Positions 34,920-64,000 are shown, counted from the first letter of the stretch. The stretch is DNA of 64,000 nucleotides from an uncultured Bacilli bacterium (GCA_934162445.1 CAKPIT010000002.1:11101-75100), one strand, 5' to 3'. Notes: generated from the letters alone by a model not told the origin. Made by a program: numbers and translations.

Positions 34920-34934
34920 AAATACACCACCTAG

Positions 34935-34961
34935 TTAAAAAAACCACTGCAAAAACAGTGG
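34935..34961 (-). terminator. Hairpin + U-run between rpmH and rnpA (partial terminator/attenuator)
   Basis: Minus strand reads CCACTGtttttGCAGTGG followed by TTTTTTT. Confidence 0.6.
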
Positions 34962-34965
34962 ATAT

Positions 34966-35094
34966 TTATTTTACTAATTCTTTGCGTCCTTTTCTACGAC
35001 GATCATTTAAAATATTTCCTTTTGCGTTTTTACGAGCAAAGAATCCGTGTTTTTTAGCTTGTTTTCTATTATTTGGTTGATAAGTTCTTTTCAT
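34966..35094 (-). CDS. rpmH: 50S ribosomal protein L34
   Basis: [22 protein letters not shown]...; 42 aa. The longer track ORF has an unsupported N-terminal extension. Confidence 0.96.
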
Positions 35095-35199
35095 TTTTAC
35101 ACCTCCAGACTTGAAATCTACATTATTATAATAAGAAGAAAGTCTGTTTGTCAAGAAAAACCACACAAATTAGAAATTTAATTAATATTTTGCACAGAA

Positions 35200-35353
35200 T
35201 GTGGAAAAAAGGAATTAACTTGTTGATTAAAAAATTGTGGAAAATGTGGAAAACTCAAAAATATGTTGATATATTTATATTTTGATTGTGGAGAAATTTG
35301 TCGAAAAATTGTGGATAAATAAAAAGTTGATTTTTGCTATTTCTTTTTCCACA
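35200..35353. promoter_or_regulatory. oriC left part: cluster of at least 6 DnaA boxes upstream of dnaA
   Basis: TGTGGAAAA at 35200, 35236 and 35245 (the last two in tandem). TGTGGAGAA at 35287. Perfect TGTGGATAA at 35310. TTTTCCACA at 35345. Confidence 0.88.
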
Positions 35354-35400
35354 AATTTAGAGTATTATAATGGTAATTTAGAAATTCAGGTGGGAGAGTG

Positions 35401-36789
35401 ATGGAAATGAATGTGGAAATTTTATGGCAAAATGTCTTAAAAGAAATCAATGATGAACTTTCCTCTCTTGCTTTTGATACTTGGTTTGATCAAGTGAGGC
35501 TTATTGAACTTAAAGATGGAGTGGCTATAATTGAAGTGCCTATGTCTATTCATAAGAAACACTTATCTGATAATTATGCAGAGCTTATTAAAGAATCCTT
35601 AAATAAGGTTACAGGAACTTATTTTGAATTAAAATTTTATTTACCTGATGAAGTTATAAGAGAAAAAGAGGAGAATAAAGAGAAAGAAAAAGAAAAAAAT
35701 ATTGATGTTAGTGCTAATACTGCTAGAAATTATAAAGAAAAATCAAATTTGAATGCAAAATATAATTTTGAAAATTTTATTGTAGGAAATAGTAATAAGT
35801 TTGCACAAGCAGCAGCACTTTCAGTGGCAGAAAATCCCGGAAAAATGTACAATCCTTTATTTATATACGGTAATAGTGGGTTGGGGAAGACACATTTGAT
35901 GCATGCTATTGGTAATTATATTGTGGAAAATTCTTCTAAGAGAGTTCTTTATGTTACCAGTGATCAATTTAGAGATGATTTTGTAGGTATTAATAAAAAA
36001 GATAATAATGGAACTAATTTTAGTTATATTGATTTTTTCAAGAATAAATATCGAAATATTGATGTATTAATTATTGATGATATTCAGTTTTTAGGAGGGG
36101 CAACGCAAACGCAACAGGAGTTTTTCCACACTTTTACTAATCTTTATAATGACTCTAAACAAATTATTATATCTTCTGATCGATCTCCTAATGATTTAAA
36201 ACTATTAGAGGAAAGATTAAGAACTAGATTCTGTTGGGGATTGACAGTTAATATTTATCCACCAGATTTTGAATTAAGGAAAGAAATTTTAAGAAAGAAA
36301 ATTATAGCTGGTAATTTTGAAACGGATATTTCAGAAGATATTATTGAATATATTGCGTCTAATATGGGAAGTGATGTTAGACAGCTTGAAGGTTCCATAA
36401 CTAGATTGGTAGCTTATTCTACAATAATGGGGGGAGCAAAAATCGATATTAATTTAGCAATTGAAGCATTAAAAGACTTTATTAGTAAAGGTTTATGTGA
36501 AAAGAACGATATTACAAGGATTCAGAAGATTGTCTCCGAGTATTTTCAAATTTCAGTTGAAGATATTAGATCTAAGAAAAGAAGTAGTAATATAGCGTTT
36601 CCAAGGCAAATTGCTATGTATTTATGCCGAAAATTAACAAGTGAATCATTTCCTAAGATAGGAACAGAGTTTGGAGGCAAGGATCATTCAACAGTTATGC
36701 ACTCAGTTGAAAAAATAGAAACAGAAATTAGAAATAATAAGGATTTAGCCGCTATTATTAAGAAACTTGAAAATGATTTAAAACCTTAA
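35401..36789 (+). CDS. dnaA: Chromosomal replication initiator DnaA
   Basis: GNSGLGKTHL Walker A; C-terminal DHSTVMH DNA-binding motif. The start could be 35401 or 35407. Confidence 0.97.
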   Translation: MEMNVEILWQNVLKEINDELSSLAFDTWFDQVRLIELKDGVAIIEVPMSIHKKHLSDNYAELIKESLNKVTGTYFELKFYLPDEVIREKEENKEKEKEKNIDVSANTARNYKEKSNLNAKYNFENFIVGNSNKFAQAAALSVAENPGKMYNPLFIYGNSGLGKTHLMHAIGNYIVENSSKRVLYVTSDQFRDDFVGINKKDNNGTNFSYIDFFKNKYRNIDVLIIDDIQFLGGATQTQQEFFHTFTNLYNDSKQIIISSDRSPNDLKLLEERLRTRFCWGLTVNIYPPDFELRKEILRKKIIAGNFETDISEDIIEYIASNMGSDVRQLEGSITRLVAYSTIMGGAKIDINLAIEALKDFISKGLCEKNDITRIQKIVSEYFQISVEDIRSKKRSSNIAFPRQIAMYLCRKLTSESFPKIGTEFGGKDHSTVMHSVEKIETEIRNNKDLAAIIKKLENDLKP

Positions 36790-36818
36790 ATTGTTGAAAA
36801 GTAGAAGTTATAAACACT

Positions 36819-36929
36819 TTTTCCACAGTTATTGTTGATAAATTTATGTTATAATATAAGCAAATAACTTTATTTTCCACAATTTCCACTGTGTAAATAT
36901 AAATATTATAAAGAAAGAAGGAATAAATT
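36819..36929. promoter_or_regulatory. oriC right part: DnaA boxes plus an AT-rich candidate unwinding region between dnaA and dnaN
   Basis: TTTTCCACA at 36819 and 36873, and a weaker ATTTCCACT at 36882. About 40 bp of almost pure A/T follow, up to the dnaN RBS. Confidence 0.75.
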
Positions 36930-38057
36930 ATGAAATTTACAATTAGAAAAGAAATATTAATGGATGCTTTAAATAAGGTAAGTAAAGCAATATCTAGTAG
37001 AAATATTATTCCCGTTTTAGCTGGAATAAAGTTTGATTTAACAAAAAAGAAATTAACCTTAACAGCAAGTGATAATGATATTACTATTCAAACCTTTATA
37101 GAATGTAATGATGAAGATATTATTACTGTAAAGGAAGAAGGTAGTATCATTATTCAAGGTAAGTATATTTTAGATATTGTTAGAAAGTTACCGGATAAGT
37201 TTATAAATATTGAAGTAGTAGATGAGTTAAAAATTTTAATTTATACAGAAAATAGTGAATTTAATTTGAATGGTATAAGTGAAAAAGAATATCCAAACAT
37301 TGATTTGGGTGAAAGTAAAAATCATATTGAGCTTTCTGCAAGAGTTATTAAGGATATTGTTAATCAAACCTCTTTTGCGACAAGTATTGATGAAAATAAG
37401 GCTATTTTAAATGGTATTAATTTTAATATTAATTCAGATATTCTTGAATGTAATGCTACTGATTCTTACAGATTAGCTCGAAAAATTATAAAGTTATCTA
37501 AAGCAAGTAAGGAAAATCAAAATATTGTAATTCCTAGTAAAAATTTAGTGGAATTTACAAGAATAATAGAGGATACTGATGATTTAGTAGAGATTCATAT
37601 CTTTAATAATAAAGTTTTATTTAAGTATCAAAGTCTTTTATTTCAATCTAGATTAATAAATGGTAGTTATCCTAATACTTCTAATTTATTACCTAAAGAT
37701 TATTTAGTAAAATTACATTTTAATATTAATCAATTTTATGATGTTGTTGATCGCGTTAGTATTTTAACAAGTGATAAGGATAAAAATGTGGTGACTCTTG
37801 AGACTGATGGTAATAATTTAATTATGAAATCTTCTAGTGCAGAAATTGGTAGAGTAGAAGAGAAGATGCAAATTACTAAGGATAATGATATTGATGTTAA
37901 AGTATCTTTTAGTTCTAAATATATGATGGATGCTTTAAAATCATTCAATACTCTTGATGTTGAATTGTATTTTGTGGGGGAAATTAAACCTATTATTTTA
38001 AAGAGTAGTGGGGATGAAACTTTAACCCAATTAGTGTTACCAATTAGGACATATTAG
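36930..38057 (+). CDS. dnaN: DNA polymerase III beta sliding clamp
   Basis: 375 aa, three-domain clamp, dnaA-dnaN synteny. Confidence 0.96.
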   Translation: MKFTIRKEILMDALNKVSKAISSRNIIPVLAGIKFDLTKKKLTLTASDNDITIQTFIECNDEDIITVKEEGSIIIQGKYILDIVRKLPDKFINIEVVDELKILIYTENSEFNLNGISEKEYPNIDLGESKNHIELSARVIKDIVNQTSFATSIDENKAILNGINFNINSDILECNATDSYRLARKIIKLSKASKENQNIVIPSKNLVEFTRIIEDTDDLVEIHIFNNKVLFKYQSLLFQSRLINGSYPNTSNLLPKDYLVKLHFNINQFYDVVDRVSILTSDKDKNVVTLETDGNNLIMKSSSAEIGRVEEKMQITKDNDIDVKVSFSSKYMMDALKSFNTLDVELYFVGEIKPIILKSSGDETLTQLVLPIRTY

Positions 38058-38195
38058 GACAAATATCAAGAAAAAAGGTAAAAAAATTACTTTTTTTCTT
38101 TTTTTGTGATAAAAAACAACAATTTTCGACAATATAATATAGTAGACTGGTAGCCAAGCAATTTATTATTGCTTAAGGAAGGGGAGTTTCGAAAA

Positions 38196-38657
38196 ATGAA
38201 TGAATATGAGATTAATGATGAGACACTTGCGATTATGCCTGATAATGTATGGAATTCGATTGTAGTAGAGGACCAAGCTTCTTATGAAATTAGCAAAAAA
38301 CCATTAGATATTGTAGATTATAGTTGTAAATACTTTGGTAGTTCATATGATGGCAGAAAGTCAGGAGCTAAAACCATTCTAAATAGTGGTTATAAGTTAC
38401 CTATTTTGGTAGAGGGAACTAGAAATATTGTGTTTTTTCCTACAATTTCGCCGCTTGATGCTGATTGTTGTTGGATATCTTTAAAAAATATAAAAAGTTA
38501 TTCAAAAATTAATGATTATCAGACTTTGGTAGAATTTAAAAACAACAGAACTTTGGTAGTTAATATATCACTAAATTCCTTTAATAATCAGGTTATGAGA
38601 GCAAGTAGACTTGAATCAACAATTCGAAATAGACAAACAAAAAAAGAAACGATATAA
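38196..38657 (+). CDS. comK: ComK-family competence transcription factor
   Basis: YEINDETLAIMP..., PLDIVDYSCKYFGSSYDGRKSGA, IVFFPTISP and NSFNNQVMRASRL align with B. subtilis ComK as I recall it. GGGGAG RBS before the ATG at 38196. Confidence 0.8.
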   Translation: MNEYEINDETLAIMPDNVWNSIVVEDQASYEISKKPLDIVDYSCKYFGSSYDGRKSGAKTILNSGYKLPILVEGTRNIVFFPTISPLDADCCWISLKNIKSYSKINDYQTLVEFKNNRTLVVNISLNSFNNQVMRASRLESTIRNRQTKKETI

Positions 38658-38681
38658 AAAAGCATTTAATTTGCTTTTTTT
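38656..38681 (+). terminator. Intrinsic terminator after comK
   Basis: aaaaagca-tttaatt-tgcttttttt. Confidence 0.7.
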
Positions 38682-38777
38682 GTGTTTTTTAGGGCGAAAT
38701 ATGATATAATATATGTGCGTGTATAGGAGTACTAAAATAGGGTGTAGGTGATAATATGGATAAATATTTGTGTAATT

Positions 38778-39890
38778 ATGATAATTAGGTCATTAAAAGT
38801 TACGAATTTTCGTAATTATGATAAATTTAATATTACTTTTGGATCAAATATGAATATTTTTATTGGAAGTAATGGTAGTGGAAAAACAAATATTTTGGAA
38901 TCTATTTCTTTATTGGGGTTAACAAAATCATTTCGTAATGTTCTTGATATTGATTTAATTAAATTTAATAAGGCTACTGCTTTAATTGAAGGAAGAGTTA
39001 ATAATAATAAGCAACTTAAGGATTTAAAAATAACTCTTAGAGATAAGAAAAAAGAAGTTTTTGTCAATGATAAAAAAGTTAAAAGATATGCTGACTATAT
39101 TTCTAATTTAAATATAATAGTATTTAGTCCACTTGATTTAGAAATTATTAAAGGTTCACCTAGTATTAGAAGAAATTTGTTGAATGTTTCTCTTTCACAA
39201 ATTTCTTATCAATATTTAGTTACTTATAATGAATATAATAAGATTTTAAAAACGCGCAATGAATATCTTAAAATTTTATATACCAATAGTATTGCAGATA
39301 TTTCTTATTTAGATATTTTAACTGATAAATTAGTTGAGAAAGCGGTTGAAATATATATGCTTAGATATGAGTATTTAAAGAAGATTAATGAAAATATTAG
39401 TAATATATATGAATTTATAACTTTGATTCCTACTTCGGTTAAGATAGTTTATAAACCTAATGTAGAGATTGATTTTGATGATGTTCAATCAATTTCTGAT
39501 AAATTAAAAAGTATTTATAAGAAATATTATAAAAAGGAATTACAACTTGGTATGACTATTTATGGGCCACATCGTGATGATTTTCTTTTTTATTTAGATG
39601 ATAAGGATATGAAATTATTTTCGTCACAGGGGCAACAAAAGTGTGCTGTATTAGCGTATAAACTTTCCTCTATTGCAATTTTTAAAGAGTATAGTGGTAC
39701 TAATCCAGTGTTACTTTTAGATGATATTTTTAGTGAACTTGACTTGGAAAAGAGGAATCGGGTTCTTAAATATATAAATAAAGATATTCAGAGTATAATT
39801 ACGACAACTGATTTGAAAAATATTTCAAAGGCTACTTTGAAAGATGCAGTTATTTTTAAAGTGGATAATGGAAAAATTGAAAGGAGTTAA
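38778..39890 (+). CDS. recF: DNA replication and repair protein RecF
   Basis: [14 protein letters not shown]...[12 protein letters not shown]; [11 protein letters not shown]. Start chosen by homology; the RBS is weak. Confidence 0.93.
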
Positions 39891-39892
39891 AT

Positions 39893-41809
39893 ATGGAAGA
39901 TAAAAAATATGATTCATCAGCAATACAAGTATTAGAAGGGTTGGAAGCAGTTAGAAAAAGACCCGGAATGTATATTGGAACTACTAGTTCAAGAGGTCTT
40001 CATCATTTGGTATGGGAGATTGTTGATAATGCTATTGATGAAGCATTAGCTGGTTTTTGTACGCATATTGAGGTTACAATTAATAGAGATAATAGTATAA
40101 CAGTAAAGGATGATGGTAGAGGTATTCCTGTGGATATTCATCCAAAAACAGGTAAAAGTACAGTAGAAACGGTTTATACAGTGCTTCATGCTGGTGGTAA
40201 ATTTGGAGGAGGCGGGTATAAAGTCTCTGGTGGTTTACATGGTGTTGGAGCTAGTGTTGTTAATGCTTTATCTGATTGGTTAGAAGTAAGAGTATATAAA
40301 AATGGTCAAGTTTATTATCAAAGATATCAAACAGGTGGTCATCCTATAGAACCTTTGAAAGTAATAGGTAGTTGTGATGTTAATAGAACAGGAACAACGG
40401 TTACATTTAAGCCAGATGATCAAATTTTTACGGAAACTACAGTCTATGATTATGATATATTAAAAACAAGACTTAGAGAATTAGCCTTTTTAAATAAAGG
40501 TCTTAGAATAACTTTATATGATGATAGGGAAAATCAGAGAAAAGATACTTTTTGTTATGAAGGTGGAATTAGAGAATATGTAGAAATGCTTAATAAAAAT
40601 AAGAATCCTATTCATGACACAATTGTTGATGTTAGTGGAAGTATGAATGATATTTCTGTTGAGGTTGCACTTCAATATAATGAATCATATAATGCTAGTA
40701 TTTATTCTTTTGTTAATAATATTACGACGCCGGAAGGTGGTACTCATGAGGATGGGGTAAGACGGGCATTAACAAGGGTTTTGAATAAGTATGCTGTTAA
40801 TAATAATTTTTTGAAAGATAAAGATACTCCTTTGACTGGTGATGATGTTAGAGAAGGTCTTACAATGATTATATCTGTTAAACATCCTAATCCACAATTT
40901 GAAGGACAAACTAAGACAAAGCTTGGTAATAGTGAGGTTAGGGGTATTGCTGATAAGATTTTTTCTGAGGCTTTTGAAAGATTTTTACTTGAAAATCCAA
41001 ATGAGGCAAAGGTTATTATTGAAAAAGCAATGACGGCCTCAAGAGCAAGGGTAGCGGCTAAAAAGGCGAGAGAACTTACAAGGCGTAAGGGAGATTTGGA
41101 TGTTACTAATTTTTATGGTAAGTTGTCTGATTGTAAGAGCAAAGATGCTAGTATTAGTGAAATATTTTTAGTAGAAGGAGATTCAGCTGGTGGTTCTGCT
41201 ATTAAAGGTCGTGATAGTATGACTCAAGCAATTTTACCATTACGTGGTAAGATTTTAAATGTTGAAAAAGCAAGACTTGATAGAGCTTTATCTAATGAAG
41301 AAATAAGAACAATTATTACAGCTTTTGGAACAGGAATTGGTGAAGAGTTTGATCTTTCTAAACTTAGATATCATAAAATAATAATTATGACTGATGCCGA
41401 TGTTGATGGATCACATATTAGAGTATTGTTATTAACTTTATTTTATCGCTTTTTTAAACCAATTGTAGAAGCAGGTCATGTGTATGCTGCTCAACCCCCT
41501 CTTTTTGTTATAAAACATGGTAAAACAATAAAATATGTTTTAAATGAACAAGAACGTGATGAATATTTAGCTACTTTAGCGCCAAACACAAAGTATGAAA
41601 TTGCTCGTATGAAAGGTTTGGGAGAGATGGATGCTGAAGAGTTAAATGAAACAACAATGGATATTCACAAAAGAGTACTTAGACAAATAACAATTGATGA
41701 TGCGGTTGCTGCTGATGAAGTCTTTTCTCAATTAATGGGTGAAGAAGTGGCTCCACGTAGGGAATTTATTGAAACTAATGCTACTTATGTGGAAAATTTG
41801 GATGTATAG
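39893..41809 (+). CDS. gyrB: DNA gyrase subunit B
   Basis: GHKL ATPase and Toprim (EGDSAGG) motifs; 638 aa. Confidence 0.98.
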
Positions 41810-41821
41810 GAGGTATTATTA

Positions 41822-44266
41822 ATGGATAGATTAGAACAAAATAATATAGTTAAAGAAGTTAAAGATTCGTTTTTGGAATATTCAATGAGTGTTATTGTGG
41901 CAAGGGCTTTACCGGATCTTAGAGATGGTTTAAAACCTGTTCATAGACGGATTTTATATTCAATGTATGAATCTGGTTATACTCCTGATAAACCTCATAA
42001 GAAAAGTGCTAAAACAGTTGGAGAAGTTATGGGTAATTATCATCCACATGGTGATTCTAGTATTTATGAGGCGATGGTAAGAATGGCTCAAGATTTCTCT
42101 TATCGATATATGTTAATAGATGGTCATGGAAATTTTGGTAATATAGAAGGATATGGTGCTGCAGCAATGCGGTATACAGAGGCTCGTTTATCTAAGATTT
42201 CTTTGGAACTTTTGAAAAACATTAATAAAAATACAGTAAATTTTGTTCCTAATTTTGATGAAACTACTAAGGAACCTGAAGTTTTACCATCAAGATTTCC
42301 GAATATTTTGGTAAATGGAACAACAGGAATAGCTGTTGGTATGGCTACTAATATTCCACCACATAATTTACGAGAGGTTATTGATGGTTGTGTAGCTTAT
42401 ATAGATAATCCTGAAATTGATGTTGATGGATTGATGCAGTATATAAAAGGTCCTGATTTTCCAACGGGAGCATCTATTTTAGGTAATAGTGGAATTAGGA
42501 AAGCTTATGAAACAGGGCGTGGAACTATTACGATAAGGAGTAAAGCACAAATTGAGGAAGTTAATGGTAGACAGCATATTATTATTGATGAGGTTCCTTA
42601 TGGTGTTAATACTTTGGAGTTAAAAAATAAAGTTGCTGAACTTGTTCATAATAAAACTATTGAGGGAATAGCTGATTATCATTCTGATTTGAAAAATGGA
42701 ATTAAAATAACTATTACTTTAAAGAAGGATGCTAATGCTCAAGTTGTTTTAAATAAGTTATATAAACATACTCAATTTCAAACAACTTATGGAATCATTT
42801 TCTTAATGCTTGATCAAGGAGTTCCTAAGACTTTAGGACTTAAAGATATTATTTCTAAATATATTGATTATCAAAAGGAAATAATTATTAGAAGAACGAA
42901 GTTTGATTTGGATAATGCTTTAAAAAGAGTACACATCTTAGAAGGCCTTAAAATAGCCCTAGATCACATAGACGCTGTTATTAAGCTAATTAGAGGGTCT
43001 AAGTCTGATGATGAAGCTAGAAAGGGCTTAATGGGGCAATTTGGGCTATCTGAGATTCAAGCTAATGCTATTTTGGAAATGAAGTTAAGAAGATTAACAG
43101 GATTAGAACGTGAAAAGATTGAAAATGAGTTAGCTGATTTATTAAAACTTATTGAAGAATTGGAATCTATTTTAAATAGTAATGAAAAGGTATTAAATGT
43201 TATTAAAACTGAATTATTGGAAATAAAGGATAAATATGGTGATGATAGACGGACAAATATTGATATGACGGCTATTGAGTATATTGAAGATGAATCTTTA
43301 ATTCCAGTTGAAGATATTATTGTAACATTGACTAATAATGGTTATGTTAAGAGAATGCGGGCTGATACTTATAAAGCTCAAAATAGAGGTGGCGTTGGTA
43401 TTAAAGGTATGGCTACTAATGAAGAGGATTTTGTTAAACATTTGATTTCTATGAAGACTCACGATTATATATTATTCTTCTCAAATAAAGGACGCGTATA
43501 TAGATTAAAGGGTTACGAAATACCAGAATTTAGTAGACAATCTAAAGGTTTACCAATAGTTAATTTATTATCGTTAGAACAAGATGAAAACATTAGTTCG
43601 ATAGTATGTTTAGATCCTTCTGTGGAAAACTATAAATATTTGTTGTTTGTAACACGAAATGGTTTGGTTAAACGTACAGAAATCAACGAATTTGATAGTA
43701 TTAGAAAGAGTGGAAAAATTGCTATTATTTTAAAAGAAAACGATGAATTAATTGTTGTGGATAAGACCACTGGTGAAAACGAGATAGTAATTGGCGCTAG
43801 TAATGGACGAATGGTTCGATTTGTGGAAAACGAAATTAGAGCAATGGGACGTGGTACTTCTGGTGTTAAAGGTATTGAGTTAGATGGTAGTATAGTTGTT
43901 GGTGCTAATGTTATTAAATCTGAAACTCAAGAGATTATGATTGTTACTGATAATGGTTATGGTAAAAAGAGTTCTATTGAAGAATATAGATTAACACATC
44001 GTGGTAGTAAAGGAGTCAAGGCTCTTAATTTAACAGAAAAGAATGGAAATATGATTTCTTTAAATGTTGTGGATAAAGGTTCTGATGAAGAACACGACAT
44101 AATGATTATTACAGACAGTGGAATAATTATGAGAATGCCAATGACTCAAGTTTCTACGTTAAAAAGAGCAACACAAGGAGTAAGGTTGATAAACTTGAGA
44201 GATAATCAAAAAGTTTCTACTGTTACAATTGTGGAAAAAGAAAATTCAGATGATACAGAAGAATGA
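41822..44266 (+). CDS. gyrA: DNA gyrase subunit A
   Basis: AAMRYTE active-site Tyr region; GyrA-box-type beta-pinwheel CTD; 814 aa. Confidence 0.98.
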
Positions 44267-44287
44267 TTAAAAATCATTCTTTTTTTA
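44260..44287 (+). terminator. Intrinsic terminator after gyrA
   Basis: agaatgatt-aaaa-atcattct followed by a T-run. Confidence 0.75.
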
Positions 44288-44293
44288 TAAAAT

Positions 44294-44309
44294 TATTTCC
44301 CGGGAAATA
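44294..44309. promoter_or_regulatory. NBS-1 (Noc-binding-site palindrome)
   Basis: TATTTCCCGGGAAATA; palindromy extends to 28 bp (taaaattatttcccgggaaataatttta). Confidence 0.8.
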
Positions 44310-44379
44310 ATTTTAATTCATAATTTATATATAAAATTTAATAGTTGTTAAATTTCTAATAGTTTATATGTTTAAATAA

Positions 44380-44395
44380 TGTTTCACGTGAAACA
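44380..44395. promoter_or_regulatory. parS-1
   Basis: TGTTTCACGTGAAACA, a perfect 16-bp palindrome. Confidence 0.85.
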
Positions 44396-44525
44396 ATGAT
44401 ATATAATAAATTATAATTACTCTTTCTAAAAAAGCGATTGCCGTTTAATTTAGAAAAATTTGAGATGAAAATTATTATGACTTTATGTACAGAAACACAA
44501 TTTATTCTTAAAAAATCAAAAAAAT

Positions 44526-44541
44526 TATTTCCCGGGAAATA
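44526..44541. promoter_or_regulatory. NBS-2
   Basis: TATTTCCCGGGAAATA. Confidence 0.8.
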
Positions 44542-44583
44542 ATCTTGAATTATAAGTTGTTAATATTTTCCATTTTTGAATAA

Positions 44584-44599
44584 TGTTTCACGTGAAACA
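44584..44599. promoter_or_regulatory. parS-2
   Basis: TGTTTCACGTGAAACA; palindromy extends to 22 bp. Confidence 0.85.
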
Positions 44600-44771
44600 T
44601 TAATAATATGTAATGAAACATCACTTATTTATGGTTAGTAAATATGTATATCTACTTATATGTTTTCATAAAGTTTTTTTTTAGATTGTAAAATTTTGTA
44701 ATAAAATGTATGTAAAAAATATAATGATTTAAAAAAATGGTATCGCTTTATTGATAAAATAAGCGAAAAAT

Positions 44772-44787
44772 TATTTCCCGGGAAATA
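44772..44787. promoter_or_regulatory. NBS-3
   Basis: TATTTCCCGGGAAATA; palindromy extends to 28 bp. Confidence 0.8.
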
Positions 44788-44849
44788 ATTTTTTAATATA
44801 TATATGACTTATAACTATAAATCTGTTGATATATTCTATTTTTTAATAA

Positions 44850-44865
44850 TGTTTCACGTGAAACA
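44850..44865. promoter_or_regulatory. parS-3
   Basis: TGTTTCACGTGAAACA; palindromy extends to 30 bp (ttaataatgtttcacgtgaaacattattaa). Confidence 0.85.
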
Positions 44866-44969
44866 TTATTAACGATTAATGCGACGTATATTATGATATA
44901 TAGATAATTAGTGGTTAAAATTATGATTAAATTGTGTGAATTTTGATTCTTTATTATATTAGTTAAAAT

Positions 44970-44985
44970 TATTTCCCGGGAAATA
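44970..44985. promoter_or_regulatory. NBS-4
   Basis: TATTTCCCGGGAAATA; palindromy extends to 28 bp. Confidence 0.8.
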
Positions 44986-45042
44986 ATTTTAAATTAATAA
45001 ATGATTTCTTTAATTGTTTCTTATATAGGTATTGTGAGCAAG

Positions 45043-45058
45043 TATTCCCTGTGAAACA
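45043..45058. promoter_or_regulatory. Hybrid/degenerate site: NBS-like left half + perfect parS right half
   Basis: TATTCCCT|GTGAAACA, in the slot where a parS is expected after NBS-4. Confidence 0.5.
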
Positions 45059-45139
45059 TATTATACTGGTTATTAAATATCTTTAAAATTAGCAAGAATA
45101 CTTTGTGTTTTATAGTTTGTTTAAAAATATATACTTTAA

Positions 45140-45155
45140 TGTTTCACGTGAAACA
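45140..45155. promoter_or_regulatory. parS-4
   Basis: TGTTTCACGTGAAACA; palindromy extends to 26 bp. Confidence 0.85.
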
Positions 45156-45165
45156 TTAAAAAAAT

Positions 45166-45181
45166 TATTTCCCGGGAAATA
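45166..45181. promoter_or_regulatory. NBS-5
   Basis: TATTTCCCGGGAAATA, 10 bp after parS-4 and 4 bp before the -35 of the SRP RNA promoter. Confidence 0.8.
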
Positions 45182-45185
45182 ATTC

Positions 45186-45213
45186 TTGCATTATAATTTT
45201 AATATGGTATAAT
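45186..45213 (+). promoter_or_regulatory. SigA-type promoter of the SRP RNA gene
   Basis: TTGCAT, 16-nt spacer, TGgTATAAT (extended -10). Confidence 0.8.
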
Positions 45214-45219
45214 TTATTT

Positions 45220-45298
45220 GTGCAATAGATTTGTTTGGAATCAGGTCAGGATGGAAACATAGCAGCCTTAACAAATTTAATCTATGTGCACTTTTTTT
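45220..45298 (+). ncRNA. ffs: Small (4.5S-type) signal recognition particle RNA
   Basis: GTGCAATAGATTTGTT pairs with AACAAATTTAATCTATGTGCAC. The apex is TCAGGTCAGG-AUG-GAAA-CAU-AGCAGCC, i.e. the helix-8 AGG/AGCA loops and a GNRA tetraloop. A U-run follows. Confidence 0.85.
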
Positions 45299-45329
45299 AT
45301 TAGAAAAATATATTGATGGTGGTGATAGA

Positions 45330-45773
45330 ATGAATAATATATATATGCAAAAAGCTGTGGAAGAAGCTAAGAAAGCTTATAAACATAATGAAGTACCAGT
45401 TGGTGCAGTTATTGTTAAAAATAATAAAATTATTGCTAAATCTTATAATAAAAAAGAAAAGAAAAAGTGTGCTATTTACCATGCTGAAATTGATGCAATA
45501 AAAAAAGCTGCAAAAGGCCTTGGAAATTGGCGATTAAATGGTTGTGAAATGTATGTTACTTTAGAACCTTGTCCTATGTGTGCTAGTGCTATTAAACAAA
45601 GTAGAATAGAGAAAGTGTTTTTTTTGTTGGAAAATAAGAACAATGAAGTACATGATTTAACAATGAATATTTTATCTGTTACAGATGCTAATGCACCTGT
45701 GGAAATCGTAAAATGTGCTAATCAAGAAGAAATAAATGAATTTATTACTTTTTTTGAAAAAAAACGTAATTGA
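45330..45773 (+). CDS. tadA: tRNA-specific adenosine deaminase TadA
   Basis: EVPVGAVIV, HAEIDAI and PCPMCASA zinc motifs. The start was moved from 45231 because the upstream part overlaps the SRP RNA. Confidence 0.93.
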   Translation: MNNIYMQKAVEEAKKAYKHNEVPVGAVIVKNNKIIAKSYNKKEKKKCAIYHAEIDAIKKAAKGLGNWRLNGCEMYVTLEPCPMCASAIKQSRIEKVFFLLENKNNEVHDLTMNILSVTDANAPVEIVKCANQEEINEFITFFEKKRN

Positions 45774-45839
45774 ACAAATGTTTTGTATAACGTTTTTTTA
45801 AATATATGTTATACTATTAAATGTTAAGGAGGTAGTTTT

Positions 45840-47510
45840 ATGTATCAAGCTTTATATCGTAAGTATAGACCACTTAATTTTGATGCGGTTGTAGGACAAT
45901 CGGTGATTATTAATGCTTTAAAAAATGCTATTTTATATAATTGTATTAGTCATGCTTATTTATTTTCAGGACCACGTGGTACAGGAAAAACAACGGTAGC
46001 AAAGATATTTGCAAGATCAATTAATTGTTTAGAACCGGTTGATGGTTTAGCTTGTGGAAAATGTAATAATTGTTTATATTCTTTTTCAACTGAGTGTATG
46101 GATATTATTGAAATTGATGCTGCTTCTAATAATGGTGTTGACGAAATAAGAGAATTGCGTAGTAAGGTTGGTATTTTGCCTAGTGAATTAAAGTATAAGG
46201 TATATATCATAGATGAAGTTCATATGCTTTCTATTGGAGCTTTTAATGCTTTGCTTAAAACTATTGAAGAACCTCCGGAGCATGTTATTTTTATTCTTGC
46301 TACAACTGATCCTGAAAAGATTCCAACTACAATTATTTCAAGATGTCAGTGGTATAATTTTAAGAAAATTGATAATGTTAGCATTGTTTCTAGATTACAA
46401 GAAATAGTAGATAGTGAAAAAATTAATGTAGAGTCTGGAGTCCTTGAAAAAATAGCATCTAGTGCAGATGGCGGTTTAAGGGATGCAATAGGACTTTTGG
46501 ATAAGCTTTATGCTTATTCTCATGATGAGATATTACTTAATGACTTTTACGAGGTTAATGGGCAAATAAATGATGAAGAATTAAGTGCTTTAAAGGCGAT
46601 TATTTCTGATAATAATGTTAAATTGTTGATGGAAAAAATAGAATCTTATTATCAAAATGGTAAAAATTTAATTCAAGTAATGCGGCAGTTAATGATAAGT
46701 ATAAAGAATGATTTGTTTTCTTATTATATTAGTGATGATAATATTCAATTTGATCCTTTAGATATGATTGATTTATTAAATATTTTGAACAATAGTTTGA
46801 TGGAATTAAAAAAATCTGATGATGTTAGACTTTCTGTGGAAATCTTGTTTTTACATTATTTTGGTTTGAAACATGATAATATTACTAAAGAAAAAAATGA
46901 TGAGAGTGTTTTTTCGAAACCAAAAGTTGTGGAAAAGCCTGTTTCTTTTAAACCAATTATAAAAAATGATGAAGTTATTGATAATAGTGGCGAAGCTAAG
47001 AGATTTGAGGAAAATTTTGATTTTAATAATTTTATTAATGTAATGTTAGTTAGATCAAAAAATATAATGTTGAAGGCATCAAAAGATGAATTAAATAAGG
47101 CTTTGAATAATAATAACATTTTTAAAGGTTCAACTTTTGATAAGACTACAGGATATTTAGCTTGTGAAATACTTGATGGTCATATTAGAGCGGCTAGTGT
47201 TGATGGAATAATAATAAGTTTTGATTATGAATCAATGGTAGAAAAAATGGCTAGTCATTTTGATATTTTGAATAATTATTATCAAAAAATGATAGGAAGT
47301 TCACAGAAAATTGCTATTATTACAAATGAGCGGTGGAGTGAACTTAAGGGAGAATATATTGAATTGAAAAGAGAGGGTAAATCTTTTGAATATCAAGATG
47401 AGCCAGTCTTGAATAAAACTGTTAATAATGATAAAATTGAGGAAACAATATCATCTAATTATATTGATGAAGTTAAAGAGATGTTTGGTGATATTGTGGA
47501 AATAAAATAA
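45840..47510 (+). CDS. dnaX: DNA polymerase III subunit tau/gamma
   Basis: GPRGTGKTT, zinc module CGKCNNC, SRCQ. Confidence 0.96.
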   Translation: MYQALYRKYRPLNFDAVVGQSVIINALKNAILYNCISHAYLFSGPRGTGKTTVAKIFARSINCLEPVDGLACGKCNNCLYSFSTECMDIIEIDAASNNGVDEIRELRSKVGILPSELKYKVYIIDEVHMLSIGAFNALLKTIEEPPEHVIFILATTDPEKIPTTIISRCQWYNFKKIDNVSIVSRLQEIVDSEKINVESGVLEKIASSADGGLRDAIGLLDKLYAYSHDEILLNDFYEVNGQINDEELSALKAIISDNNVKLLMEKIESYYQNGKNLIQVMRQLMISIKNDLFSYYISDDNIQFDPLDMIDLLNILNNSLMELKKSDDVRLSVEILFLHYFGLKHDNITKEKNDESVFSKPKVVEKPVSFKPIIKNDEVIDNSGEAKRFEENFDFNNFINVMLVRSKNIMLKASKDELNKALNNNNIFKGSTFDKTTGYLACEILDGHIRAASVDGIIISFDYESMVEKMASHFDILNNYYQKMIGSSQKIAIITNERWSELKGEYIELKREGKSFEYQDEPVLNKTVNNDKIEETISSNYIDEVKEMFGDIVEIK

Positions 47511-55669: not shown

Positions 55670-55691
55670 TAATTAAGAATTGGAGGAAGTT

Positions 55692-56321
55692 ATGACTGGT
55701 GATGATATTTTAAAACAGCATAAACAAATTTTTGTTGAAGCAAGTCGGGAACTTGTTATAAATAACACTTTGTCTTTAGTAGAGGATGATATAATTAAAG
55801 GTGTTATTACGCCGCCACTTGATACAATGGATTTAATTAAACAGCGAATTTTGAATATAGCTAAAAATAATAAAATAATCTTAAAAACTGATAGTTTTAA
55901 TAAATATTTAAATAATTATAAAAGTAGTTTAAGTGAATATTTTCATGAATTTGGTAAGAAAAGACAAGATTTTATATGTAATTATTTAGATAAATTTGAT
56001 GATGAAAAGCCTCTAAATTTAGTAAAGGGACTAAATAGGGAACTTATTAAGTTTAATAAAGAATTAAAGAAGGAAAGTAAAAACTTTATTGTGGTTAATC
56101 TTGATAAGGAAATAATTAAAAATATAGATAAAATATCTGATGATGGTAATTTAAAATTTAAAAAGGAAGCGTTGAAATATTTACAAAGTCTTTATGTTAA
56201 ACAACTATTGGAGGCTTTGGAAATGAAACTGCTTGTTAAAGATACAATACTTTTAAATAGTTTAAAAGAACAAATTGAAAGGTTTGTTTTTACAAAAGAA
56301 AATTCTCATTTATTTGATTAA
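55692..56321 (+). CDS. Hypothetical protein (predicted helical, K/N/E-rich, no recognised motif)
   Basis: GGAGG RBS 5 nt before the ATG at 55692; own promoter; no signal peptide or TM segment. Confidence 0.6.
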   Translation: MTGDDILKQHKQIFVEASRELVINNTLSLVEDDIIKGVITPPLDTMDLIKQRILNIAKNNKIILKTDSFNKYLNNYKSSLSEYFHEFGKKRQDFICNYLDKFDDEKPLNLVKGLNRELIKFNKELKKESKNFIVVNLDKEIIKNIDKISDDGNLKFKKEALKYLQSLYVKQLLEALEMKLLVKDTILLNSLKEQIERFVFTKENSHLFD

Positions 56322-58925: not shown

Positions 58926-59108
58926 ATGGTGAAGAATAAAGAAAAATTTGAATTCAATACGTGTGTATTGTACTTGCTGTATGTTTTACTTGCAGTTATG
59001 GTAATACTTGATAAGGATATAATTGATATAGTTTATTTCGGATTAATGTCTATATTATTGGGTAAATTACATTTTATTAGAAGAAAAAAGAAAAGTACTA
59101 AGAAGTAA
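58926..59108 (+). CDS. Possible small membrane protein
   Basis: 60 aa with two hydrophobic segments and a basic tail; AGGAAAGGA RBS. No homology recognised. Confidence 0.35.
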   Translation: MVKNKEKFEFNTCVLYLLYVLLAVMVILDKDIIDIVYFGLMSILLGKLHFIRRKKKSTKK

Positions 59109-60513: not shown

Positions 60514-60593
60514 TTAGTGTAAATCTTTAAAAAAGGGGTTGCCTTTTTTTAAGGTTGTATGATATATTGGTATAGTAAAGGAGGAAACATAGA

Positions 60594-61241
60594 ATGAAAG
60601 ATAATAATTCTAAACAAGTGTTATTGTCTGTACTTGGAGTTGCTATTTTAGTTGTAGCTGTTGTAGGTGTGTCATTTGCAGCATTTGCTTATAGTAAAAC
60701 AGGTACTAACGTTAACGTTATTACTACTGGTACTATTACAATGGTTTATAATGATGAACAACCAACAATTGATATTAAAGATGCATTACCAATGAAAGAT
60801 GCAACTGGTATGGCATTAAATGGTGAAAAAGAAAAATTCGATTTCACTGTATCTGCTACAATCACTGGTACTACTTCTATCAACTACAAAGTTACTGCTA
60901 ATAAAGAAGCTAGTACTTTAGCTGATAACAACGTTAAAGTTTACTTAACTAAAGGTGCTGTAGAATCTGGTACTGAAGAAGCTTATGCTACTACTTCAAC
61001 ACCAAAAAGAGTATCTGAGTTAACTAAAGTTGGCGCTGATGATGTTAGTGGTGCTCCAGAAGGACAATATATTTTGGATCAAGGTACTTTCAGTGCTACT
61101 ACATCTAATCAATATAGATTAAGAATGTGGGTAGCTGATGATTACAATGGTACTACTGATGGTACTACTACTACTGATGGTATTGTTTCTCAAAATTATC
61201 AATTAAGAGTAAATGTCTATGGTAAAGCTGCTGCTCAATAG
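60594..61241 (+). CDS. Paralogue 1 of a secreted T/S/G-rich protein family with a TasA/camelysin-like (SipW-type) signal region
   Basis: AGGAGG RBS. N-terminus reads ...VGVSFAAFAYSKTGTNVNVITTGTITM, with C-terminal YRLRMWVADDY...YQLRVNVYGKAAAQ. The functional call is an inference. Confidence 0.6.
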   Translation: MKDNNSKQVLLSVLGVAILVVAVVGVSFAAFAYSKTGTNVNVITTGTITMVYNDEQPTIDIKDALPMKDATGMALNGEKEKFDFTVSATITGTTSINYKVTANKEASTLADNNVKVYLTKGAVESGTEEAYATTSTPKRVSELTKVGADDVSGAPEGQYILDQGTFSATTSNQYRLRMWVADDYNGTTDGTTTTDGIVSQNYQLRVNVYGKAAAQ

Positions 61242-61256
61242 TAAGTAGTGTATAAA

Positions 61257-61286
61257 TGTAAAACAGTAATGTTTTACATTTTTTTT
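61257..61286 (+). terminator. Intrinsic terminator after paralogue 1
   Basis: tgtaaaac-agtaat-gttttaca followed by T8. Confidence 0.8.
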
Positions 61287-61348
61287 GATTTAAATTATTG
61301 TTTTTAAAAAATATCTATGTTATAGTTTATTATAGAGGAGGAAGTAGA

Positions 61349-61999
61349 ATGAAGAACAATAATTCTAAACAAATATTGTTATCTGTAATTGGAATTGCTA
61401 TTTTAGTTGTAGCTGTAGTTGGTGTATCATTCGCAGCATTTTCTTATAGTAAAACTGGTACTAACTTAAACGTTATTACTACTGGTACTATTACAATGGT
61501 TTATAATGATGAACAACCTACAATTTCAATTGATAATGCATTACCAATGAAAGATGCAACAGGTATGGTTTTAAGTGGTACAAGAGAAAAGTTTGATTTT
61601 TCTGTAGCTGCTACTATTAGTGGTAGTGGTACAACTATCAACTATAAAGTTACTGCTAAGAAAGAAACTAGTACTTTACCTGACAATGCTGTTAAAGTTT
61701 ACTTAACTAAAGGTGCTGTAACTAGTGGTAGTGAAGTAGCTTATGCTACTACTAGTACTCCTAAAAAAGTATCTGAATTAAGTACTGTAACTGCTGGCGA
61801 TGTTAGTGGTGCAAAAGCTGGTGAGTACATTCTAGATAGTGGTACATTTACTGCTACTAAAACTAACCAATATAGATTAAGAATGTGGGTAGCTGATGAT
61901 TACAATGGTACTACAGATGGTTCTACTAGTAATGCTGGTATTACTTCTAAGAATTATCAATTAAGAGTAAATGTCTATGGTAAAGCTACTGCTCAATAG
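61349..61999 (+). CDS. Paralogue 2 of the same family
   Basis: GAGGAGGAAG RBS before the ATG at 61349. Nearly identical to paralogue 1 over the first ~70 aa. Confidence 0.6.
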   Translation: MKNNNSKQILLSVIGIAILVVAVVGVSFAAFSYSKTGTNLNVITTGTITMVYNDEQPTISIDNALPMKDATGMVLSGTREKFDFSVAATISGSGTTINYKVTAKKETSTLPDNAVKVYLTKGAVTSGSEVAYATTSTPKKVSELSTVTAGDVSGAKAGEYILDSGTFTATKTNQYRLRMWVADDYNGTTDGSTSNAGITSKNYQLRVNVYGKATAQ

Positions 62000-62017
62000 T
62001 AAGTAGTATGAAATAGG

Positions 62018-62048
62018 TGTAAAACATTTTGGTTTTACATCTTTTTTT
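62018..62048 (+). terminator. Intrinsic terminator after paralogue 2
   Basis: tgtaaaac-attttg-gttttaca followed by a T-run. Confidence 0.8.
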
Positions 62049-62113
62049 GTCATTAATATTGATTTTTAGGAATGGAATATGATATGCTTTTTATATAGTA
62101 AGGAGGTATTGTT

Positions 62114-62755
62114 ATGGAGGATAAAAATAAACAAATATTGTTATCTATTCTTGGAGTCGCTATTTTAATAGTTGCTGTTGTTGGAATTTCCTTTGCAGCA
62201 TTTGCTTATAGTAAAACAGGACAAAATATTAATGAGATTACTACTGGTACTATTACAATGGAATATACTGATAGTGAACCTACTATTAATATTAGTAATG
62301 CTTTACCTACAACGGATGCTACTGGTAAAATTTTATCTGGTACAAATCAATATTTTGATTTTACCGTAAAAGCTACTATTAATGGTAGTGGTACAACAAC
62401 TATTAACTACAAAGTTACTGGTAAACAAGAAACTGGTAGTTCTGATTTACCAAATACTGCTGTTAAAGTATATTTAACAAAAGGTGCTGTAACTAGTGGT
62501 AGTGAAGTAGCTTATGCGACTACTAGTACTCCTAAATTAGTGTCACAATTAACAGTTGTTGGTAGTAATGATATTAGTGGTGCTGCTTCAGGTGAGTATA
62601 TTTTAGATAGTGGAACGTTTACAGCTACTACTACTAATAAGTATCGTTTGAGAATGTGGATTGATAATGATTATACTGGTGATGCAAGTGGTGATATTAC
62701 ATCTAAATCTTATAAATTAAGAGTAAATGTTTATGGTAAAGCTGCTGCACAATAG
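62114..62755 (+). CDS. Paralogue 3 of the same family
   Basis: AAGGAGG RBS and the same N- and C-terminal signatures. Confidence 0.6.
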   Translation: MEDKNKQILLSILGVAILIVAVVGISFAAFAYSKTGQNINEITTGTITMEYTDSEPTINISNALPTTDATGKILSGTNQYFDFTVKATINGSGTTTINYKVTGKQETGSSDLPNTAVKVYLTKGAVTSGSEVAYATTSTPKLVSQLTVVGSNDISGAASGEYILDSGTFTATTTNKYRLRMWIDNDYTGDASGDITSKSYKLRVNVYGKAAAQ

Positions 62756-62769
62756 TTAGTTGTTAAGTT

Positions 62770-62795
62770 GAGTAGATTATATCTACTCTTTTTTT
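62770..62795 (+). terminator. Intrinsic terminator after paralogue 3
   Basis: gagtagat-tat-atctactc followed by T7. Confidence 0.8.
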
Positions 62796-62852
62796 ATGGA
62801 CTTGATTATCTATATGGTTTGTGCTATATTTTATTATAGAGGAGGAGCTATT

Positions 62853-63473
62853 ATGGATAAGGGGAATGTTAAAAAAGTTAGTGATGGTGATAATTTTAGA
62901 TCTACTATAATGATAATAATAGCTATAATCATTTTGTTATTAATGGTAGTAGGGGCTTCTTTAGCAGCTATTATTTATAGTAAGACTGGTGAGAAAATAA
63001 ATAGAATAACTACTAGTACTATTACGATGAGTTATAATGAAAAAACAAATGGGATAAATATAACTAATGCTTATCCAATAACAGATGAAGTTGGTAAAAA
63101 ATTAAGTGCTACTAACGAATATTTTGATTTTACGGTTAGTGCTACAACTAATAATACGGCTATTAATTATGCAATTTGTGGAAGTAAGGAAAGTAGTAGT
63201 ACTTTAGAAGATGATGCGGTTAAAGTATATTTGACTAATACAGATAATAATAAAGTTTTATTACAGCCAACAAAAATATCGGCTTTAGATAAAACTGATA
63301 ATAAAATTTCTTTTGCTCCAAGTTTACAATATATTTTGTATAAGGGAACTTTTAATAATAGTGAAACTGTTAATTATCGATTAAGAATGTGGATTGCTAG
63401 TGATTATAATGTAACTGGTACTTCTAAATCTTATATGTTACGTGTTAATGTTTATGGGGCAAGTAGCAAATAA
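62853..63473 (+). CDS. Paralogue 4 (divergent) of the same family
   Basis: GAGGAGGAG RBS before the ATG at 62853. Retains AAIIYSKTGEKINRITTSTITM, YFDFTVSAT, AVKVYLT, YRLRMWIASDY and LRVNVYG. Confidence 0.55.
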   Translation: MDKGNVKKVSDGDNFRSTIMIIIAIIILLLMVVGASLAAIIYSKTGEKINRITTSTITMSYNEKTNGINITNAYPITDEVGKKLSATNEYFDFTVSATTNNTAINYAICGSKESSSTLEDDAVKVYLTNTDNNKVLLQPTKISALDKTDNKISFAPSLQYILYKGTFNNSETVNYRLRMWIASDYNVTGTSKSYMLRVNVYGASSK

Positions 63474-63497
63474 AAGTGTTTTATACACTTTTTCTTT
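63472..63497 (+). terminator. Weak intrinsic terminator after paralogue 4
   Basis: aagtgt-ttta-t-acactt followed by a short T-run. Confidence 0.45.
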
Positions 63498-63549
63498 ACC
63501 TTGAAAATTTAATGTGATACAATTAGTTTAGAGTATGAGGGAGTATATT

Positions 63550-64000
63550 ATGAATAATGAAAATTATGAACAAGAAATAAAAAGAGAAAAAAATAGTCGA
63601 TTATTTGTTATTATTATAGCTTTCTTAATTTTTATCATTATGGTTGTGGGCGTTAGTATGGCGGCTATTACTTATACTAATACTAAAAACAGTATTAATA
63701 CAATTAGTACTGGTAATGTTTATATGAATTATAATGAGGATTCTAACGGTATTAATATTACTGATGCTTATCCAATTGCAGATGAAGTTGGTAAAAAATT
63801 AATGTCTAAGGGTGAATATTTTGATTTTTCAGTGACGGCTAAATTTGAAGGTAAATTAGTAGCTGATTATGAAATATCAGCTTTAAAAGAGGCTGATTCA
63901 ACACTTAGTGATGATGCTGTTAAGTTATATTTAGAAAAGTATGAAGATGGTAATTATGTAGAAGTGATGGCTCCTAAAAGTTTTACACCATTAAAAGAAA
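63550..64000 (+). CDS. Paralogue 5 (divergent); 3' end runs off the window
   Basis: Own translation: MNNENYEQEIKREKNSRLFVIIIAFLIFIIMVVGVSMAAITYTNTKNSINTISTGNVYMNY...YFDFSVTAK...AVKLYLEK. GAGGGAG RBS. Not in the ORF track because it is open-ended. Confidence 0.55.
   Translation, partial: MNNENYEQEIKREKNSRLFVIIIAFLIFIIMVVGVSMAAITYTNTKNSINTISTGNVYMNYNEDSNGINITDAYPIADEVGKKLMSKGEYFDFSVTAKFEGKLVADYEISALKEADSTLSDDAVKLYLEKYEDGNYVEVMAPKSFTPLKE

Follow-up and report, generated by a model that had tools for sequence, protein, structure and literature searches.

What do the tandem genes at the end of this 64,000-nucleotide stretch from an uncultured Bacilli bacterium encode, and how might their products reach and organize themselves at the cell surface? 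Five consecutive same-strand paralogues, here g1 to g5, occupy positions 60594-64000 of the stretch (the window, by which we mean the whole of the DNA analysed); they encode proteins of 206-216 aa and the fifth is cut by the window edge. The original prediction, made from the DNA alone, had seen in them a family of small secreted proteins with N-termini like those of TasA and camelysin (CalY), perhaps forming a multi-subunit or antigenically variable fibre or sheath. Our analysis places the array directly ahead of a gene for a SipW-type signal peptidase lying just beyond the window, in an arrangement conserved across many genomes, and on balance, at a probability a little above even, we take the five genes to belong to the subunit genes of a SipW-dependent, sortase-independent, multi-subunit extracellular fibre or pilus of uncultured low-GC gut Bacilli.

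Open reading frames and the family profile agree on five tandem paralogues with the last cut at the edge, as had been described: searched against the whole 64-kb window, the profile matched g1-g5 alone (E 4e-78 to 2e-50). The conserved blocks and the T/S/G/A-rich composition noted earlier are likewise present, the mature proteins containing 12-17 % T, 6-11 % S, 5-9 % G and 7-10 % A, and the blocks SFAAF, N.I.TGTI.M, A.P..D..G, FDF.V, KVYL, YRLRMW and VNVYG being kept in 70 diverse relatives. By direct reading, the array proteins have neither an LPXTG motif nor a hydrophobic C-terminal tail, their C-termini ending ..LRVNVYGKAAAQ. The family is large, with 1,442 matches among 90 %-identity clusters and 3,616 clusters at 50 % identity (E<=1e-3), and appears to be unannotated: neither Pfam nor NCBIfam has a model for it, no name or Pfam domain was found among the family members and relatives checked, none of the 18 family clusters looked up has a name or a UniRef or nr entry, and our literature search found no published description.

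A scan for SipW-like open reading frames inside the window found none, in agreement with the original prediction, which had proposed looking for sipW just past the edge. Such a gene is carried by a metagenomic contig, L001, that runs on beyond the edge and shares 99.6 % identity with the window over 12.65 kb; in window numbering the gene would start ~210 nt after base 64000. In L001 g5 can be read to its complete length of 210 aa and is followed, in order, by genes for a 227-aa protein, a 179-aa paralogue, a 229-aa protein with a single transmembrane (TM) segment and a 144-aa protein with ~4 TM segments, and further downstream by ksgA, yabG, veg, spoVG, yabP, yabQ, divIC, tilS and ftsH. The 227-aa protein scores 98.4 bits against TIGR02228 (cut-off 51.85) and matches human SEC11A/C among PDB sequences (E~1e-3), and the motifs SPSMVP, THR and TKGDxNNTxD are kept in at least 95 % of 65 peptidase homologues; judged by its sequence, it is a signal peptidase I of the endoplasmic reticulum (ER)/archaeal, i.e. 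SipW, type. Its score against the B. subtilis SipW equivalog model (98.2 bits) falls below the cut-off of 190 bits, so that this peptidase is of the same type as B. subtilis SipW rather than its orthologue. Of all the paralogues and the four downstream proteins, it was also the only one to give a significant match in Pfam and NCBIfam.

The gap between g5 and sipW in L001 is only 28 nt and contains no terminator, which makes g5 the first gene of an operon that continues with sipW, the minor paralogue and the genes for the 229-aa and 144-aa proteins, and which would span ~63550-66558 in window numbering. The 179-aa paralogue, a divergent sixth member of the array family, overlaps the sipW gene by 4 nt. 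The two membrane-protein genes (L001 14085-15210, ~65433-66558 in the window) end the sipW operon in 64 loci, and their products gave no Pfam, NCBIfam or PDB sequence match.

The constancy of this arrangement was examined in 78 loci, namely L001 and 77 from a genome scan, the latter belonging to 'Candidatus Onthousia', Clostridium sp. CAG:451 and a large number of gut metagenome-assembled genomes (MAGs) that are labelled as uncultured Bacilli or Tenericutes. In 65 of the 78, the array (1-7 paralogues) has a SipW-type gene immediately after it, and 64 show the full order M(1-7)-S-m-T-E (paralogues, sipW, minor paralogue, TM protein, 4TM protein), most commonly as MMMMSmTE (n=30); the loci without sipW are almost all truncated contigs or extra family loci of the same genomes. 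The chromosomal position is equally constant: wherever the flanks were long enough, metS-tatD-(yabE-like) lay upstream (51/51) and ksgA-yabG-veg-spoVG downstream (55/55), which indicates that the cluster is fixed and vertically inherited in this lineage and not a recent insertion. The original view of an accessory insertion in housekeeping synteny thus needs to be qualified.

Some family members are far longer than those of the array, joining the ~200-aa N-terminal module to extensions of 300-1,600 aa, several of them with Big_2/Flg_new repeats. Extended members were seen at L079 8001-18379, L057 2133-5495, L065, L072 and L074, most of them in loci without sipW, and one of 1,120 aa is located within an array. 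One MAG, Lapin-012 bin84, holds at least seven separate family loci.

The neighbourhood also bears on the idea that these are spore-associated proteins (coat, crust or appendage), made during sporulation and processed by SipW. Sporulation-linked genes lie on both sides of the cluster (spoVT upstream; yabG, veg, spoVG, yabP and yabQ downstream), and TasA itself was originally reported under the name spore coat-associated protein N, a label that many TasA homologues still carry. However, these neighbours only reproduce the ancestral origin-proximal synteny of Bacilli, so that adjacency tells us little, and the codon bias described below suggests very high expression; sigma-70-type promoter-like sites are also listed near the gene starts, although their number shows no excess over chance. 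We hold a spore role to be quite improbable, and it would in any case be compatible with a fibre.

The paralogues sort by position into orthology classes. In cross-genome comparisons, members of the g5 type adjoining sipW (class C) find 95 % of their best matches at the same position (-1), and those of the g4 type (class B) find 72 % of theirs at position -2. The g1-g3 type at position -3 and beyond (class A) shows cross-genome matches that mix among themselves; class A copy number varies (1-5 or more), and copies within a locus are 60-75 % identical, which indicates recent duplication. The paralogue after sipW (class m) forms a group of its own. This positional orthology fits the multi-subunit structure that had been suggested. 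In classes A, B and C alike the hydrophobic segment ends with S-x-A↓A, whereas class m mostly reads S-[IMF]-[LV]-W-Y, with L or V replacing A at -1; a type I signal peptidase would be expected to cut such a site poorly, and class m is probably left uncleaved and retained in the membrane.

The cleavage region is the most conserved part of the family. Column identity reaches its family maximum of 0.65 in the pentapeptide S27-F31, compared with 0.53 in the hydrophobic h-region, 0.40 in the core and 0.18-0.19 in the T/S/G-rich loops, and A29 is nearly invariant in the 70 diverse members; in the TasA family, too, conservation is higher in the signal region than in the folded core. Direct reading shows the features expected of a TasA-like N-terminus, i.e. 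a conserved h-region, small-aromatic-Ala, [AY]-F and N..GT[LI].[LM], in VGVSFA↓AFAYSKTGTNVNVITTGTITM. When the family was aligned by hhalign with a TasA/CalY profile built from a 30-sequence alignment, 61 N-terminal columns, from the signal peptide to about the 35th mature residue, fell in register (probability 42 %, pairwise E 2.6e-4), pairing S-F-A↓A-F with T-W-A↓A-F, N41 with the conserved N, TGTITM with AGTLDL and I.I.NA.P with f.LsNLKP. The resemblance of the N-terminal motif to TasA and CalY, on which the original prediction rested, is in this respect supported. In TasA, the donor strand comprises residues 28-38 and the linker residues 39-47 (PMC9674648).

Structure prediction is consistent with such a segment being free. 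The AlphaFold2 models of g1 (mean predicted local distance difference test score, pLDDT, 85.3 at full length; pLDDT 84.0 and predicted template modelling score 0.82 for the mature part) consist of an N-terminal (signal) helix, an unstructured stretch of ~8 residues and a beta-sandwich of ~10 strands. The unstructured stretch in the monomer model corresponds to the first ~8 mature residues, the counterpart of the TasA donor strand, and has pLDDT <50. In Foldseek searches the full model matched the TasA fibre 8aur with E 5.6e-3, probability 0.94 and a template modelling (TM) score of 0.34, the highest query-normalized score listed, and the mature model matched it at rank 38 (E 0.029, TM score 0.31); generic jelly-rolls score equally well. 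The archaeal bundling pilus 7ueg was among the weak matches of the full model (E ~1e-2, TM score 0.26), and the match lists also include Wntless and a Fab.

Several results weigh against a fibre of the TasA kind. The mature core aligns with TasA by hhalign at a probability of 0.2-0.8 %, and g1-g4 give no match at E<=10 to PF12389, NF046066, TIGR04088, TIGR04089 or TIGR04090. Foldseek found no PDB match at E<=1e-3 for the mature model, whose best TM score is only ~0.35 and whose fold matches generic jelly-roll or beta-sandwich proteins (Pgp3, carbohydrate-binding modules, lectins). In addition, the N-terminal likeness to TasA could reflect convergence on the SipW recognition site and not a donor strand, the hydrophobic segment of ~21 residues is also compatible with a membrane anchor, and SipW may simply be the general signal peptidase of the organism.

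The wider family gave a mixed picture. Positive controls behaved well, TasA scoring 509 bits on the TasA-family hidden Markov model and TasA and CalY 38-40 bits on TIGR04088 (cut-off 19 bits). Sub-threshold matches, whose recurrence speaks for a resemblance to TasA, were obtained among the 70 relatives for TIGR04088 (8/70, best E 0.07), the TasA equivalog NF046066 (6/70, best E 0.0013) and Peptidase_M73 PF12389 (3/70, best E 0.0048), and the sole Peptidase_M73 match inspected (P0131, E 0.2) is confined to residues 7-77; g5 gave no match at E<=1 to the TasA-family models PF12389 and NF046066, and neither TIGR04089 nor TIGR04090 appears in the list of the 25 families that the 70 relatives matched most frequently. 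DUF7472, with weak matches in 11/70, was set aside as uninformative, the sole match inspected covering the TM helix only. With no match to the five TasA-related models at E<=10, a core probability below 1 % and TM scores of 0.31-0.34, the membership in the TasA/camelysin family that had been proposed for these proteins is not supported. The array subunits are not assignable to the TasA/CalY/BsaA family, though the system looks as if it works in the manner of TasA, CalY or BsaA.

If the N-terminal segment were not cleaved at all, the array would encode type II membrane-anchored surface proteins, and SipW, as a general signal peptidase, would be linked to them by synteny only. The length (~21 residues) and high conservation (0.53) of the h-region could be read in this way, as could the weak matches of many members to transmembrane-segment models and the probable lack of cleavage in class m. 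Yet S27 (-3) and A29 (-1) are nearly invariant at the end of the helix, with class m as the sole exception, a signal region conserved in the same way is known to be cleaved by SipW in the TasA family, and the linkage to the peptidase is tight and includes translational coupling. On this evidence we regard uncleaved anchors as very unlikely.

Still further from the evidence is the notion that these proteins resemble archaeal-type or type IV pilins and keep their N-terminal helix as the core of a filament. The weak Pfam matches of g4 to Arch_flagellin (E 0.027) and Pilin_N (E 2.5), the Pilin_N matches in 5/70 relatives, and the best PDB profile matches, to the Sulfolobus pilins 6nav (E 0.19) and 8tib (E 0.93), point in this direction, but all are non-significant and driven by the hydrophobic helix; PDB sequence searches with g1 and with the family profile returned only such helix-driven archaeal pilin matches. 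By direct reading, moreover, there is no G/A-type prepilin cleavage motif ahead of the helix, and none of the 65 clusters contains a prepilin peptidase, an assembly ATPase or a PilC-like gene, the partners being SipW and two small membrane proteins. A pilin-like assembly seems to us scarcely credible.

The expression signals of the array agree with its description as a series of separate genes. An AGGAGG-type ribosome-binding site precedes each ATG by 6-9 nt, so that the strong sites previously reported are present, although that of g5 is the weaker GAGGGAG (direct reading). The intrinsic terminators assigned to genes 1-4 were also recovered, a hairpin and T-run following the yabE-like gene and each of g1-g4 (-13.2 to -6.5 kcal/mol, z -4.1 to -2.0), with the weakest of the array after g3 and g4; the stem after g1 is too AT-rich for the consensus terminator scan and was detected by its folding energy. 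An inverted-repeat search gave only similarity of terminators to one another, and phase variation via invertible promoters was discarded. The codon usage of g1 and g2 (AAC 0.36, TAC 0.30, GGT 0.82-0.89, ACT enriched and ATA almost absent) differs from that of g4, g5 and the window's housekeeping genes, g4 and g5 following the genomic background (ATA makes up 0.52 of the Ile codons in g4). Such a pattern is usual for highly expressed genes of low-GC Firmicutes. Read by this general knowledge and not against a ribosomal-protein reference, the bias suggests that g1 and g2 are highly expressed, and its contrast with g4 and g5 suggests very different expression levels within the array. The features of the cluster are listed in Table 1.

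Table 1. Genes and expression signals of the array, in window coordinates
Feature	Position	Strand	Description
Terminator of upstream yabE-like (3D-domain) gene	60525-60560	+	-13.1 kcal/mol, z -4.1; 5' boundary of cluster
g1	60594-61241	+	215 aa, class A (major-type) subunit; predicted SipW-type signal peptide at residues 1-29, with predicted cleavage at S-F-A↓A-F; predicted mature beta-sandwich of 186 aa
Predicted signal peptide of g1 (M1-A29)	60594-60680	+	Basic n-region, h-region of 18-21 residues, S27-F28-A29 at the putative cleavage point
Terminator-like hairpin and T-run after g1	61254-61286	+	-12.2 kcal/mol, z -3.5
g2	61349-61999	+	216 aa, class A subunit; 80 % identity with g1
Terminator after g2	62015-62049	+	-13.2 kcal/mol, z -3.95; also in consensus scan
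g3	62114-62755	+	213 aa, class A subunit; 67 % identity with g1
Terminator after g3	62770-62795	+	-8.9 kcal/mol, z -2.0; also in consensus scan
g4	62853-63473	+	206 aa, class B subunit, position -2 relative to sipW, site S-L-A↓A-I; 46 % identity with g1
Weak terminator-like hairpin after g4	63472-63498	+	-6.5 kcal/mol, z -2.8
g5	63550-64000 (edge)	+	Class C subunit, position -1, site S-M-A↓A-I; 150/210 codons inside window; 38 % identity with g1

The same data bear on the most serious alternative to a fibre, in which SipW processes the proteins and these then make up, instead of fibres, an abundant and variable coat or sheath on the cell surface, either S-layer-like or loosely attached, or a secreted matrix, with the class A copies supplying antigenic or functional diversity. 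The variable number and the divergence of the class A copies within a locus would suit a coat, as would the concentration of variation in the T/S/G-rich loops relative to the core, the separate ribosome-binding site and terminator of each class A gene, the strong codon bias of g1 and g2 and the generic lectin, carbohydrate-binding-module and jelly-roll domains matched by the fold. On the other hand, four conserved orthology classes, one of them apparently uncleavable, together with two membrane proteins dedicated to the cluster, resemble an assembly system more, and the free N-terminal segment aligns in register with the donor-strand region of TasA. We therefore consider a non-fibrous coat unlikely, though it deserves to be kept in mind.

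Given the preferred reading of the array as a fibre, its assembly may be pictured as follows. The ER-type peptidase SipW would cut at S-F-A↓A-F, after A29, and the N-terminal segment thus released (AFAYSKTGTNV..), which corresponds to TasA residues 28-38, would insert into the sandwich of the neighbouring subunit, yielding donor-strand-exchange polymers that need no chaperone. Class A would then make up the shaft, with classes B and C supplying scarcer subunits for adaptors or the tip, while class m might stay in the membrane as a base or nucleator in a role like that of TapA; the two membrane proteins (T and E) could form an assembly or anchoring platform. The adhesin-type Big_2/Flg_new repeats of the long family members support a fibre, and such relatives, with the N-terminal module followed by repeats, may be plugged into it or displayed on it. 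A broader and distinctly more tentative proposal is that the ~200-aa module is the polymerization and attachment unit of an unrecognized class of pilus, constituting the main surface display of reportedly sortase-less, RFN20-like gut Bacilli; in it a donor strand exposed by SipW, an anchor provided by the uncleavable paralogue, adaptor classes that set the order from base to tip and giant adhesins plugged in by strand exchange would be combined with a fold that is unrelated, or only anciently related, to TasA.

How far does this system resemble those already described? As in the tapA-sipW-tasA operon of B. subtilis, an ER/archaeal-type signal peptidase is clustered with its presumed substrates, and a major subunit is accompanied by a divergent accessory paralogue (TapA there, class m here). 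The likeness to TasA extends to the conserved signal region, ending in [ST]-aromatic-A↓A-F and followed by N..GT[LI].[LM], and to a mature beta-sandwich, predicted here, without LPXTG. There are also clear differences. Profile comparison detects no similarity to TasA in the mature domain, whose fold matches that of TasA only weakly. In place of one major subunit and TapA, the cluster has five to eight subunit genes belonging to four orthology classes; its major genes are monocistronic and precede the peptidase operon; it encodes two additional conserved membrane proteins; and class m seems not to be cleavable, while TapA is a substrate of SipW.

Several remote TasA-like paralogues in an operon with sipW are also found in the BsaA/TasA family, which a survey of 2,172 proteins describes as widespread and very highly divergent in sequence, with multi-paralogue operons that include signal peptidases (PMC11580942); this precedent favours the fibre reading. 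The sipW-bsaA-bsaB-bsaC cluster of C. perfringens likewise combines sipW with several paralogues, and its polymers are membrane-anchored and sortase-independent; unlike BsaA, however, the present proteins give no TIGR04090 match, and no link to a von Willebrand A protein or to type IV pili was seen. Archaeal donor-strand filaments (Pyrobaculum AbpA, 7UEG; Sulfolobus threads; Pyrodictium cannulae) are built from small beta-sandwich subunits by Sec11/SipW-type processing and chaperone-free donation of an N-terminal strand, as proposed here, but the host in our case is bacterial and a multi-class gene array is not described for the archaeal systems. Chaperone-usher and sortase pili are functional analogues only: in these, too, one gene cluster encodes an abundant shaft subunit together with scarce subunits for adaptor, tip and anchor that share its fold, whereas no chaperone, usher, sortase or LPXTG occurs here. 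The general kind of system, i.e. SipW and remote TasA-like paralogues in one operon giving sortase-independent fibres, is thus already known. What is new is an unannotated subunit family whose core is not detectably related to that of TasA or BsaA at the level of sequence, the four-class architecture with its monocistronic genes for the putative shaft, a paralogue that is apparently not cleavable and two membrane proteins of its own, and the host group, uncultured gut Bacilli. Judging from the names of related MAGs, the organism probably belongs to the order RFN20, which according to a survey lacks srtA/B sortases (PMC10868615).

Other features of the window are recorded here for completeness. 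Positions 33046-47510 hold the chromosomal replication origin region, with jag (R3H/KH) and yidC on the - strand and dnaA (35398-36789), dnaN, gyrB, gyrA and dnaX on the + strand, and both the gene strand and the sign of the GC skew switch at ~34-36 kb; this location puts the fibre cluster ~25 kb from dnaA, on the leading strand. A bacterial small signal recognition particle RNA (RF00169, 52.9 bits) lies at 45216-45297 and is overlapped by a 180-aa open reading frame (45231-45773) that is probably spurious. Upstream of metS there is a T-box leader (RF00230, 57030-57236, 101.7 bits). Two further open reading frames gave no Pfam match: one of 213 aa between mfd and spoVT (55680-56321), which is conserved in L001, and a hydrophobic one of 60 aa between metS and tatD (58926-59108), which is also called as a gene in L001.

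SipW-dependent donor-strand fibres, represented by TasA, CalY, BsaA and the archaeal bundling pili, are emerging as a widespread route to filaments of biofilms and cell surfaces that requires no chaperone, and the cluster described here would extend them to a large group of uncultured gut Bacilli. The locus would provide a defined multi-class system for the ordered assembly of a heteropolymer by strand exchange, with shaft, adaptors and a putative uncleaved anchor, and it is a candidate route for the display of adhesins in the reportedly sortase-less gut Bacilli of RFN20. As the family is probably abundant and exposed at the surface, its members are also candidate targets of host immunity and candidate strain-level markers in gut metagenomes.

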